Assembly: GCA_016927155.1 (NCBI GenBank)
Contig: JAFGNE010000047.1
Span: forward strand, 1 to 30,077
Direction: 5' to 3'
Length of the DNA stretch: 30,077 bases
DNA from: Candidatus Peregrinibacteria bacterium
Lineage (GTDB): Bacteria; Patescibacteriota; Gracilibacteria; UM-FILTER-43-11
The notes under the pieces were generated by a model that was given only the letters and a program-made list of their open reading frames with translations, did not search any database and was not told the origin of the DNA. Below are positions 11,579 to 27,396 of the stretch, piece after piece (position 1 is the stretch's first letter; each line of letters begins with the position of its first letter). A program made the translations under genes and the position numbers.

Positions 11579-13215
11579 TGCTCAATCCATCCCAACAACA
11601 GGCCATTGAAACGGCGGGGGGGCCGCTCCGGATCGTCGCGGGGGCCGGCACCGGCAAAACGCGCACGCTTACGGAACGGATCGCTTATTTGATCGAAACA
11701 GAAAATATCCTGCCGCATCGCATCCTCGCCCTCACCTTTACCAACAAGGCCGCGCATGAGATGGTAGAACGGTTGCGCCAAAAGCGCGAGATCCTGAAAC
11801 AAGTTCAGGATGACAATGCGCTTTTGGCGCCACAGGTCATGACTTTCCATTCGCTCGCCGCCCGCCTTTTGCGGCAGTATTGGGACCCGAATTTCATCAT
11901 CCTCACGGAAAAAGACGGGGGACCTCCCGAAGACGTGAACGCGCTTGACTTTGACGGCCTGCTCACCAAGCTGATTGAGGTATGGGATGAAAAGCCGGAG
12001 GTACTTATGGACTGCCAACAAAAATTCGACCATATTTTAGTGGACGAATACCAGGACGTGAACGCGGCGCAAATCGAAATCGTGCGGCGGCTGGCTGAGC
12101 CTCATCGCAACCTCTGCGTGGTGGGAGACCCTGACCAGACGATTTATTCATGGCGCGGGGCCAAAGCGACCTCAATGACGGAGTTCGCGGAGTTATACCC
12201 GGAAACAAAAACCGTTATCCTGACACAAAATTACCGCAACCCGCCCGCGATCCTGAAAGGCGCGGAAGAGCTTATCCGCCATAATCCGGACCGGATTGAA
12301 AAGCGGCTGGAAGCGGCCAAAACCACGGGACAGCCGATCGCGCTTTGGGAAAACGGGAACGAATGGGAAGGTTACGACACAATTTCCCACATCCTTGAAA
12401 TGCACCTCGGCTCGCACGGCGATATGGTGCTGGCGGACAGTTTGGATGTTGGGCGGCATGGGGGCTTCCGGCCGTTCTCGGACATCGCCATCCTTTACCG
12501 CACGCAGGCCGAAGGCAAAAAAATCGCGGCCCGCCTCGCGGAACGCGGGTACCCCTGCCAAATGTCCGCATCAGAGTCATTTTGGGAAAGGAAGGAGGTG
12601 AAGGAATTTTTGGGTGAATTGGAAAAATTCCGTAGCGGCATATGTCATCCTGAACTCGTTTCAGGATCTGCCGCTGCGCCCCTTTTTTCCTCCTGGTTAC
12701 GCGACCGCATCACTTCTTTCGCCGCGTCCAAGCAATTAAAGGCCGCTCCGGCAAACCACCTGAACCTACTGATCGCGTACGCCATTCCTTTTGACCGGTT
12801 GCCGGTTCAAGAAGCGCTCGCCATTTTCCTCGACGAAACCAAGCTACAGCAGGAGGCGGACAACTTGATTATGGCGGACCGCATCAACCTGCTGACCCTG
12901 CACGCGGCCAAAGGGCTGGAATTTCCGGTTGTCGTCATCATCGGGCTGGAAGAGGAACATATCCCCCATTTAAAACCCACGGACGACCCAGATAATCTGG
13001 CCGAAGAACGCCGGCTTCTTTACGTGGGCATGACGCGCGCCACGGAAGAACTGCATCTTCTGGGTGCTAAAAAAACCGGCAATAAAGAACTCAAGCCGTC
13101 GCGGTTCCTGGCAGAAATCGGTCACGCCAATATGGCAACCGGCCAATTGCCGGAAAAAGCGGCAATCCGACTCAAACGTAAGGCCATCAAGCAGGCGCAG
13201 ATGAAAATGTTTTAA
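11578..13215 (+). CDS. UvrD/Rep/PcrA-like superfamily 1 helicase, compact form
   Basis: AGAGTGKT, LTFTNKAA, TFHS, DEYQD, GDPDQTIYSWRGA, QNYR, TLHAAKGLEF and EERRLLYVGMTRA motifs. TGATG overlap with the upstream EndoQ gene. Confidence 0.92.
   Translation: MLNPSQQQAIETAGGPLRIVAGAGTGKTRTLTERIAYLIETENILPHRILALTFTNKAAHEMVERLRQKREILKQVQDDNALLAPQVMTFHSLAARLLRQYWDPNFIILTEKDGGPPEDVNALDFDGLLTKLIEVWDEKPEVLMDCQQKFDHILVDEYQDVNAAQIEIVRRLAEPHRNLCVVGDPDQTIYSWRGAKATSMTEFAELYPETKTVILTQNYRNPPAILKGAEELIRHNPDRIEKRLEAAKTTGQPIALWENGNEWEGYDTISHILEMHLGSHGDMVLADSLDVGRHGGFRPFSDIAILYRTQAEGKKIAARLAERGYPCQMSASESFWERKEVKEFLGELEKFRSGICHPELVSGSAAAPLFSSWLRDRITSFAASKQLKAAPANHLNLLIAYAIPFDRLPVQEALAIFLDETKLQQEADNLIMADRINLLTLHAAKGLEFPVVVIIGLEEEHIPHLKPTDDPDNLAEERRLLYVGMTRATEELHLLGAKKTGNKELKPSRFLAEIGHANMATGQLPEKAAIRLKRKAIKQAQMKMF
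11775..11830 (+). repeat. Palindromic (REP/RPE-like) element, copy 1, in frame inside the helicase
   Basis: GCGCCAAAAGCGC-GAG-ATCCTGAA-ACAAG-TTCAGGAT-GACAAT-GCGCTTTTGGCGC: perfect 13-bp outer stem and 8-bp inner stem. Confidence 0.85.
12631..12678 (-). repeat. Palindromic (REP/RPE-like) element, copy 2, inverted relative to copy 1, in frame inside the helicase
   Basis: Plus strand CGTAGCGGCA-TATGTC-ATCCTGAA-CTCGT-TTCAGGAT-C-TGCCGCTGCG. Its 27-bp core (12643-12669), reverse-complemented, matches copy 1 (11789-11815) at 26/27. Confidence 0.85.
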
Positions 13216-25940: not shown

Positions 25941-26492
25941 CTACCGGATCAGGTTCAAAAATTCGCTACGGGTATTCAGGTTCGACTTAAAGAGGCCGGT
26001 GAAAGCGGAGGTGATGATTTCGGAATTCTGTTTTTCCACGCCGCGGGCTTTCATGCACAGATGCTGGGCCCTTAAAACAACGCCCACGCCTTTCGGCTGC
26101 AGGAGCTCATTGAGCGTGTCCGCGATTTGTTTGGTAAGCCGTTCCTGGTTCTGCAGGCGGCGGGCGAAAATTTCGACCATCCGCGGCAACTTGGAAAGGC
26201 CGATGATCTTGTCGTTTGGCAAATACCCGATGTACGCCCTGCCGAAAAAAGGCAAGATGTGGTGTTCGCAGGTGGAAAAAAAATCAATATCTTTGGCGAT
26301 GATCATCTCATCGCACCCCTCATTGGTAAAAACCTTGATGAGTTTTTTGGGATCCTGCCCATAGCCGCCATACAGTTTCGCGAAACTGCGGACCACACGC
26401 TCGGGAGTATTAAGAAGCCCTTCGCGCTTGGGATCTTCGCCAATTTCCGCAATCAGCCTGCCGATAAGTTTTTGGAGGTTTTCGGGGTTCAT
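25941..26492 (-). CDS. folE: GTP cyclohydrolase I
   Basis: REGLLNTPERV, STCEHH, IIGLSKLPR, RLQNQERLT and HLCMKARGV motifs. Confidence 0.96.
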   Translation of the reverse strand: MNPENLQKLIGRLIAEIGEDPKREGLLNTPERVVRSFAKLYGGYGQDPKKLIKVFTNEGCDEMIIAKDIDFFSTCEHHILPFFGRAYIGYLPNDKIIGLSKLPRMVEIFARRLQNQERLTKQIADTLNELLQPKGVGVVLRAQHLCMKARGVEKQNSEIITSAFTGLFKSNLNTRSEFLNLIR

Positions 26493-27046
26493 AAAAATGG
26501 GGTTACTTTATGGGAATCTTCCAAATTTTGCAGAATAAGACGGTACAGGTTTTTTGTCACAGGGTCCTTCAGGCCGGGTTCAAGTTCCACCAACGGCACC
26601 AGTACAAATTGCCTGTTATTCATGTGGCGGTGGGGCACCTGGAGCTCCGGCAAATCGACCACTTCATCGCCATAAAGCAGGATGTCGATGTCGATCCGGC
26701 GGGGTTTCAGCTCTTTTTTATGAGTACGACCCATCGCTTTTTCCACCACTTCACAGGTTTCCAGAAATTCCAAAGGGTTCAAATCCGTTTCGATTTTAAG
26801 CACACGGTTCAGGAACCAGGAATGGCCTTTTTCCGCCGCCGGCTGACCTTCCTGACGGCCGTCGGGCCCGCCCGAACGATCCGAAAATCGTTCGGACCGG
26901 ACGGGGAACCAGGGTTCGGTTTCATAAACCCTGGATGACTGGATAATTTTGATTTTGCCGGTTTCCCCCAGCTTTTTTTCAGCTTCCATAAGGTGTTCAA
27001 GCCTGTCGCCGACGTTGGAACCCAGTGATAAATAAGCCGTGATCAT
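26489..27046 (-). CDS. folK: 6-hydroxymethyl-7,8-dihydropterin pyrophosphokinase with a ~20-aa loop insertion
   Basis: AYLSLGSNVGDR, SRVYETEP, FLNRV, E..MGR, PRRIDIDILLY and PH..M.NRQFVLVPL motifs. Start placed at ATG 27046 (ATGA overlap with the PTPS gene). Confidence 0.93.
   Translation of the reverse strand: MITAYLSLGSNVGDRLEHLMEAEKKLGETGKIKIIQSSRVYETEPWFPVRSERFSDRSGGPDGRQEGQPAAEKGHSWFLNRVLKIETDLNPLEFLETCEVVEKAMGRTHKKELKPRRIDIDILLYGDEVVDLPELQVPHRHMNNRQFVLVPLVELEPGLKDPVTKNLYRLILQNLEDSHKVTPFL
26847..26906. repeat. 60-bp double palindromic insert inside folK
   Basis: CCTT-CCTGACGGCCGTCGGG (26851-26866, perfect core GACGGCCGTC) abuts CCGAACGAT-CCGAAA-ATCGTTCGG (26872-26895). Confidence 0.75.
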
Positions 27047-27396
27047 TTTCCGGTATAAATAGCGAATGAATTGGCGGTTTCCCAGATACGCACTTCGGCC
27101 AACCCTCTGATTTTCGGTTTCAGCTGTTTCCAAACCCACACGCACATGTTTTCCGCGGAAGCGACTTTAATGGTGTCGTTGATAGTGGAATGGTCCAGCT
27201 TATCCACGACCCGCTCATTCACGATTTTTTTGATTTCCATAAAATCCATCACCAGGCCGTCCTTTTTTACAGGCCCTTCCACAATAACGCGGAGCTTATA
27301 GGTGTGGCCATGCATACGTTCGCATTTGCCATGGTAATCGGGCAAATAATGGGCGGCGTCGAACGTAAATTCTTTGGCAATCCGGAGCTTGGGCAT
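27043..27396 (-). CDS. queD: 6-pyruvoyl/6-carboxy-tetrahydropterin synthase family (COG0720), CExxHGH type
   Basis: FDAAH, KCERMHGHTY, DGLVMDF, LDH, SAEN and WETANS motifs. Confidence 0.9.
   Translation of the reverse strand: MPKLRIAKEFTFDAAHYLPDYHGKCERMHGHTYKLRVIVEGPVKKDGLVMDFMEIKKIVNERVVDKLDHSTINDTIKVASAENMCVWVWKQLKPKIRGLAEVRIWETANSFAIYTGK

Follow-up and report, generated by a model that had tools for sequence, protein, structure and literature searches.

Palindromic repeats that are tolerated within genes are known in outline, and the insertion in folK described here is ordinary in kind (RPE-like or REP-like) and new in its particulars. Rickettsia palindromic elements (RPEs) were reportedly described by Ogata and colleagues in 2000 as in-frame palindromic repeats in housekeeping genes, translated as extra surface segments. 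Most RPEs are 100–150 bp long and occur in Rickettsia, and the host proteins stay intact. The 'Byp' elements of Magnusiomyces mitochondria, said to have been reported by Lang and colleagues in 2014, are short GC-rich palindromic mobile inserts in protein-coding genes. Byps, which the ribosome skips, do not have to be in frame.

RPEs are mentioned in PMC3733652 and PMC10969869. The intragenic GTAG- and CGTC-tagged REPs (Di Nocera, De Gregorio, Rocco 2013, PMC3733652) are 20–40 bp GC-rich stem-loops whose intragenic copies encode ∼10–30 extra residues. The CGTC class, for which no dedicated transposase is known, is defined by an unpaired CGTC, TGTC or CCTC tag directly 5′ of the stem, a stem of 8–9 bp starting with A-T pairs, a loop of 4–5 nt and a CCA-like tail (PMC3733652). 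Ssn nucleases (Chenal et al. 2025, PMC11893778) are encoded by small single-domain GIY-YIG genes lying beside 20–50-nt hairpin repeats (NTS/SRM), which are also dispersed over the genome; an SRM lies beside a single-domain GIY-YIG (cd10448) gene, whose product cuts it as single-stranded DNA. SRMs are rarely intragenic (2% in N. meningitidis; PMC11893778). SegB is a free-standing GIY-YIG homing endonuclease in the tRNA gene cluster of phage T4 (PMC2330249).

The window, i.e. the whole 30,077-nt stretch of DNA that was analysed, comes from an ultra-small uncultured bacterium (the assembly has 915 kb in 99 contigs with 50% G+C and is 90% complete) and carries the following gene and loop.

26489..27046, minus strand: folK (HPPK) coding sequence, 185 aa plus stop, from the ORF list and its translation
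26807..26908, minus strand: whole HPPK loop 2, residues 47–80 (FPVR...SWFLN), 13 residues of which are insert, from the alignment and AlphaFold2

Judged by its sequence, the gene belongs to the HPPK/FolK family (PF01288), as the original prediction had held: FolK matches the Pfam HPPK profile with E 6e-35 (120.6 bits, cut-off 25.7) and HPPK chains in PDB with E 3e-28. Both matches come in two pieces. The Pfam match splits after residue ∼47, and in the PDB match query residues 1–46 and 78–166 align to residues 4–49 and 57–145 of S. aureus HPPK. For annotation this matters, as inserts of the kind described below split profile matches and inflate loop lengths in the proteins of these bacteria. 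All 25 columns that are invariant in 39 aligned homologs are retained in FolK, including N80, R107, R116, D119, D121, H139, R145 and F147; the relatives carry labels such as Peregrinibacteria and 'Patescibacteria group'. The start of folK overlaps the stop of the upstream PTPS gene (27043–27396), and its stop overlaps the start of the downstream folE (25941–26492). The ATGA start/stop codons shared at 27043–27046 and 26489–26492 join the three pterin branch genes, an arrangement that suggests translational coupling of folE, folK and the PTPS gene.

An in-frame palindromic insert of exactly 60 bp (26847–26906) had been predicted in folK. Palindromic DNA is indeed inserted there in frame, and alignment of FolK orthologs did reveal the empty site; the gap, however, is 39 bp long and lies at 26867–26905.

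26867..26905, unstranded: inserted element, 39 bp, from the gap against orthologs L001 and L003, covariance model R1 and an nhmmer profile
26872–26880 and 26887–26895 (arms), 26881–26886 (loop), unstranded: inner hairpin of the element, a perfect 9-bp inverted repeat
26851..26866, minus strand: ancestral loop codons PDGRQ, coding strand CCCGACGGCCGTCAGG; the orthologs have PDGRQ in non-palindromic DNA

In the DNA alignment with the two closest orthologs (P0002 and P0003, with 74% and 71% identity to FolK) the window is longer by exactly 39 bases, which lie between TGGTT(C/T) and CCCGA(C/T)GG, hence 13 inserted residues (48–60). The plus strand of the insert reads CCCGCC CGAACGAT CCGAAA ATCGTTCG GACC GGACGGG, and its translation from the minus strand is PVRSERFSDRSGG. 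Both orthologs read ETEPWF-PDGRQTGQPAAE(E/K)GH, and the gap comprises these 39 bp and 13 aa only. Excision of the 39 bp gives back the WF|PDG of the orthologs, with an empty site TGGTTC|CCCGACGG; the element sits between the codons for Phe47 and Pro61. Since CGGG both precedes and ends the element, its boundaries may slide by up to 4 nt (26863–26901). The inner hairpin, CCGAACGAT-CCGAAA-ATCGTTCGG at 26872–26895 of the plus strand, has a 9-bp stem and a 6-nt loop and is the centroid structure in both DNA and RNA folds. We put the probability that chance would give a perfect 9-bp stem restricted to a 39-bp indel at ∼3e-4, and do not regard the hairpin as a chance feature; genome-wide, ∼45 comparable hairpins were found against roughly 20 expected. 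The folding energy of the 76-nt region gave no signal against shuffles (z −0.9 as DNA, −1.3 as RNA).

The original prediction also expected the motifs to recur in the genome. In exact form they do not: neither was found by exact or BLAST-short search elsewhere in the 915-kb assembly, and a search of 30 family genomes for the exact stem pattern gave no match. Terminal 7-mers allowing one mismatch did not discriminate either (238 inverted pairs versus 222–226 in controls). The element as defined from foreign copies, on the other hand, does recur. When all species genomes were scanned for the 9-bp stem, >120 loci came up. Most were repeats of Salibacterium and other Bacillota that are AT-flanked, terminator-like and unrelated to the element; one locus was related (L044, in a 'Candidatus Peribacteria' MAG), and there the flanks are alike too. 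Among the former, a multi-copy repeat of Salibacterium, Rossellomorea and other Bacillaceae (L017–L136) has the CCGAACGAT stem, but with AT-rich sequence on either side (aaaaatgCCGAACGAT..ATCGTTCGGcattttt); it resembles a terminator-type repeat and seems to have no relation to the folK element.

A scan of 400 genomes of the class for the 16-nt core added three further copies. The five aligned copies are conserved over a span of exactly 39 nt and unrelated outside it, with the consensus CC(C/T)(G/A)CC CGAACGAT loop ATCGTTCG GA(T/C)C GG(G/A)CGGG, and the ends of conservation are the ends of the folK insertion as defined from the orthologs. Covariance model R1, whose E-values are rough by the tool's own statement, places the element of the window at 26866–26906 (E 9e-11) and finds one to nine copies per genome in G117, G374, G342, G047, G032, G080, G126 and G131. 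Occurrence is patchy, with the element in 6 of 151 genomes sampled from the class and in none of 13 others sampled from the window's own family. With an nhmmer profile built from 23 foreign copies only (the own genome being excluded), the own genome has just two significant copies, in folK (26867–26905, E 6.9e-7) and in queG (C32:1953–1985, E 7.9e-5); the next hit has E 0.04. The foreign-profile E-value and the coincidence of element ends with indel ends place the folK insert in the CCCGCCCG-ended hairpin family. A member of this family is a GC-rich sequence of 32–39 nt with ends CCCGCCCG...CGGGCGGG and a core CGAACG(AT/TA)-loop-(AT/TA)CGTTCG, in the pattern CCCGCCCGAACG..loop..CGTTCGG..CGGGCGGG; it forms two stems with a 4–5-nt bulge and a loop of 0–6 nt (6 nt in the folK copy). 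Two core variants exist, CGAACGAT...ATCGTTCG and CGAACGTA...CGTTCGGTA.

We therefore regard 26867–26905 as very probably a copy of a mobile two-stem palindromic family that inserted in folK, where it would be translated and neutral. The copy would have entered between the Phe47 and Pro61 codons with no clear target duplication. Precise excision gives back the ortholog sequence in folK as well as in queG and carA, with only 1–4 nt of ambiguity; 8-nt inverted ends, as in MITEs, are present in the element, but target-site duplication, also typical of MITEs, is not. The proposal of a second family of coding-region palindromic inserts is thus substantiated by the significant queG copy and by a probable truncated relative in carA.

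G000:C32:1953–1985 (L143 1502–1534), in frame: queG copy, 33 bp, encoding PPERAVSVRAG (11 aa), profile E 7.9e-5
G000:C14:3823–3846, in frame: carA palindrome, 24 bp, CCCGCCCCTTACGGTACGGGCAGG, encoding PPLTVRAG (8 aa)

The queG host is a QueG-type epoxyqueuosine reductase by Pfam; its 11-aa insert is missing from 11 family orthologs, and excision gives back GAGES. The carA insert lies between the CPSase and GATase domains, is missing from nine orthologs and has ends as in the folK element, but it is graded as probable only, because it is non-significant by profile. The family of the folK and queG copies is distinct from the TGTC-tagged REPs found in a helicase at 11775–11830 and 12631–12678. 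In other genomes the hosts of intragenic copies include Fmt, PdxT/SNO and a GT4 glycosyltransferase.

The element is free of stop codons in all six frames. Its length is a multiple of three in six of seven copies in open frames of ≥300 aa versus 4 of 21 remaining copies (Fisher p 0.003; the folK copy, a multiple of three, was counted with the remaining copies, and copies are not fully independent). The single exception is a copy upstream of the real prs start; in this case (L044 3324–3360, Ca. Peribacteria MAG) the element directly precedes the codon at which prs (PRPP synthetase) probably starts, and is still within the longer stop-to-stop frame. Being stop-free and having lengths in multiples of three, the intragenic copies are likely to be translated rather than skipped or excised, and the multiple-of-three rule led us to set aside ribosomal bypass and removal at the RNA level. 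In this the family differs from Byp elements: plain translation is what the stop-free multiples of three point to.

Other short palindromes of similar style, with the form GCCCGCCCG..GTTCGGACGGGC, occur in the own genome.

G000:C5:5169–5194, C43:11785–11808 and C1:10426–10454: 26–29-nt palindromes GCCCGCCCG..GTTCGGACGGGC

They lie inside a DHH/DHHA1 protein (DHH phosphoesterase), near the atpA start and in a GT2 transferase, and encode GPSEPARAG, NPSEPARAG and GPSERLSRAG. A 26-nt palindrome, GCCCGCCTGTACCAGTATGGGCAGGC, has three identical copies (G000:C5:6564–6589, C9:9270–9295 and C10:10022–10047), apparently outside long ORFs.

The site in FolK had correctly been placed in HPPK loop 2: it lies between the ETEPW strand and WFLN, with Asn80 corresponding by alignment to Asn55 of E. 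coli. The insert starts two residues after the position aligned with E. coli Leu45 and ends 17 residues before that aligned with Tyr53, two residues involved in pterin binding in E. coli HPPK. From YETEP to FLN there are 40 residues here, 27 in the closest orthologs, 24–33 in 11 family relatives and 16 in E. coli HPPK. The loop was already long before the insertion; without the 39 bp it is still 9–17 residues longer than in canonical HPPKs, a length typical of the family and variable across it. The expectation that removal of the insert would restore a loop of normal HPPK length does not hold, therefore, as the loop is long in the whole clade. The insertion point is where the loop 2 lengths of the clade differ. 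The AlphaFold2 model of FolK (mean pLDDT 87.9) retains the HPPK order of strands and helices; pLDDT is low only at about residues 47–70 (<50 at 55–64), and residues 44–77 have no secondary structure. The model thus predicts that the HPPK fold is kept and that the loop alone is disordered. Transcription and translation of the insert would then add 13 disordered residues to an already long, length-variable loop 2, and FolK presumably stays active, given that the fold and all family-invariant residues are intact.

It is conceivable that the insert has been co-opted, either as an mRNA hairpin tuning translation of the three overlapping genes (folE, folK, PTPS) or by lengthening the loop so that FolK gating or partner binding changes. 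Its position in a catalytic loop beside the pterin site and the apparent translational coupling of the three genes would fit such a role. Yet the insert is conserved in no relative, its folding energy is ordinary for its composition, the same element occurs in unrelated proteins and the model has disorder at this place, and we consider co-option unlikely. The folK copy seems rather to persist as a neutral insertion, not for any service to FolK. If so, an essential folate enzyme encoded in a genome of ∼1 Mb can accommodate a selfish DNA hairpin even in its catalytic gating loop.

The direction of the change has to be considered too. A long loop with the hairpin might be ancestral, the relatives having lost the hairpin by deletion between CCCG repeats; direct repeats of CCCG that could mediate such a deletion are present, and the L007 loop has a vaguely similar KERFDDE. 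(We judged the ERF.D likeness to the L007 loop to be due to chance.) Should P0002 and P0003 be sisters, one deletion in their ancestor would formally be no less parsimonious than an insertion in the window. However, the hairpin is missing from all 38 aligned homologs and from all 11 family genomes, the loops of other genera are encoded in unrelated, non-palindromic DNA and the element exists elsewhere as a discrete unit. The distant relatives and the identity of the element thus argue against a deletion in the ancestor of P0002 and P0003, and an ancestral hairpin appears very unlikely.

Could the hairpin have formed locally, through slippage during replication or a template switch in an indel-prone loop, with no mobile family involved? 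Loop 2 varies in length by many indels in the family, the insert is flanked by CCCG microhomology and the exact motif is unique in the genome. Still, such an origin hardly seems credible in view of the same 38–39-nt sequence, together with its asymmetric bulge, in other families of the class amid unrelated flanks, and of the detection of the insert (E 6.9e-7) by a profile that has learned nothing from its own genome.

The 60-bp interval had been read as two abutting palindromes, possibly inserted in succession, whose joint removal would leave a normal HPPK loop. The letters were read correctly: both palindromes exist and abut, and the coding strand encodes ...FPVRSERFSDRSGGPDGRQEG... in FolK. 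But the first of them, CCTGACGGCCGTCGGG at 26851–26866 of the plus strand (7 of 8 pairs), lies outside the insert. PDGRQ(T/E)GQPAAE.GH is common to the window FolK and both closest orthologs, where the PDGRQ codons are the non-palindromic CCCGATGGCCGCCAAA and CCCGATGGCAGGCAAA; since PDGRQ is common to all three proteins, this 'first palindrome' represents ancestral codons. A 16-nt palindrome with one mismatch is, by our estimate, expected several times per 30 kb by chance. With the element family ending exactly at 26867 and the loop of the clade long without any insert, we give two successive insertions next to no credence. Faulty assembly or binning, through a chimeric join or a wrongly assembled repeat, is extremely improbable in this fragmented MAG of 99 contigs, with read depth of ∼5x from one sample, as an independent 849-nt Logan contig, from what is probably the source run, spans the site with the insert and has zero differences from the window, the insert is in frame with precise bounds and the same pattern is seen in queG and carA.

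The reading as a copy of a mobile palindromic family invites comparison with the described systems. To RPEs the folK element is alike in behaviour only, being in frame and translated with the host protein intact; it differs in size (32–39 nt), presumably in sequence, in its Patescibacteria-type genome and in being tied, in relatives, to tRNA fragments and GIY-YIG genes. With REPs it shares the size, the GC-rich stem-loop and intragenic coding copies; it departs from the GTAG and CGTC classes in having two stems, a 4–5-nt bulge, ends CCCGCCCG/CGGGCGGG and no stem-adjacent tag. CGTC does occur on both strands of the folK copy, but 4 and 8 nt from the stem, and the family consensus has CCCGCC there. 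The stem, CCGAACGAT, does not start with A-T pairs and encloses a loop of 6 nt; a second, outer stem carries a bulge, and the CCA tail is missing. As both tag and stem disagree, the element was rejected as a CGTC-REP. Nor does the published SRM search motif match: HGTCWYN(0-2)YYVSBRHN(0-5)WNVSBRGN(0-2)RNCYNB is absent from either strand of the folK, queG and carA copies. What recalls the Ssn/SRM system is that small single-domain GIY-YIG genes of 82–87 aa (by Pfam PF01541) abut the element, itself also dispersed, in two foreign genomes; besides the motif, the lack of a small GIY-YIG gene in the own assembly sets it apart. The GIY-YIG genes lodged among or within tRNA genes in G117 and G126 resemble SegB in this respect. 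SegB, in contrast, is a larger protein, of a phage, and the hairpin repeat, the duplication of the tRNA 5′ part and solo copies in protein genes are undescribed for it. We found no paper on the CCCGCCCG-ended element family in the literature.

A relation to tRNA genes emerged from 26 foreign copies. Nine of them lie in the D-loop of a duplicated 5′ tRNA fragment. For seven of these nine, an intact gene for the same tRNA lies 38–49 nt away, and the fragment breaks off in the anticodon loop. Within the D-loop of the fragment the hairpin sits at TA^GAGC, in either orientation. The other two copies have a GIY-YIG gene of 82–87 aa (PF01541, E 1e-13 to 1e-15) between the fragment and the intact tRNA.

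L147 1481–1865 (G117:C2): cassette of G117 at tRNA-Ile (Ile-GAT), GIY-YIG gene at 1561–1821
L187 1126–1560 (G126:C2): cassette of G126 at tRNA-His (His-GTG), GIY-YIG gene at 1223–1468

GIY-YIG adjacency thus holds for 2 of 26 foreign copies, loosely for 4 of 26. The nearest relative of the folK copy is the G117 copy (two substitutions and one loop base), which lies within the tRNA-Ile 5′ fragment, 15 nt upstream of the 87-aa GIY-YIG gene. In the own assembly neither a small GIY-YIG gene nor a Y1 transposase was found, the single GIY-YIG match there being a 780-aa frame. The mover of the folK copy can thus only be inferred, as the assembly has no small GIY-YIG or Y1 gene and the element departs from the SRM and CGTC-REP definitions; with no nuclease gene in a 90%-complete assembly, the folK copy may be a relic.

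By analogy, a small GIY-YIG nuclease might recognise the hairpin as single-stranded DNA. Its gene would travel with the hairpin inside tRNA genes in related lineages, and solo hairpins like that in folK would spread in trans. Taken one step further, the folK insert would be the solo recognition hairpin of a tRNA-gene-colonising mini GIY-YIG cassette, undescribed in print, whose nuclease, acting in trans, places copies of the hairpin in single-stranded targets that resemble D-loops (TGGTTN^ / ^GAGC) and whose stop-free design remodels loops of essential enzymes across ultra-small bacteria. This extended scenario is possible, if on balance doubtful. The hairpin sequence and the two candidate nucleases do provide a handle on which enzyme moves palindromic repeats that have no tag. 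The size and origin of the folK insert are corrected here in any case, and the insert is tied to a sharply defined family that marks GIY-YIG cassettes splitting tRNAs.

Excision of the element from the tRNA-like flanks gave no ARAGORN tRNA, because the flanks are 5′ fragments only. Layouts lacking the nuclease gene (L185, L183, L192, L193, L194, L180 and L191, in G032, G131 and G126) consist of the 5′ fragment split by the hairpin, an AT-rich spacer and then, 38–49 nt downstream, an intact Trp, Val, Ile, Ala, Met, Phe or Ile(TAT) tRNA. In the cassettes the order is the 5′ tRNA fragment (positions 1 to ∼33) with the hairpin in its D-loop, the GIY-YIG gene and the intact tRNA; in L147 the nuclease ORF enters the tRNA, and its stop is the TAA of the anticodon loop.
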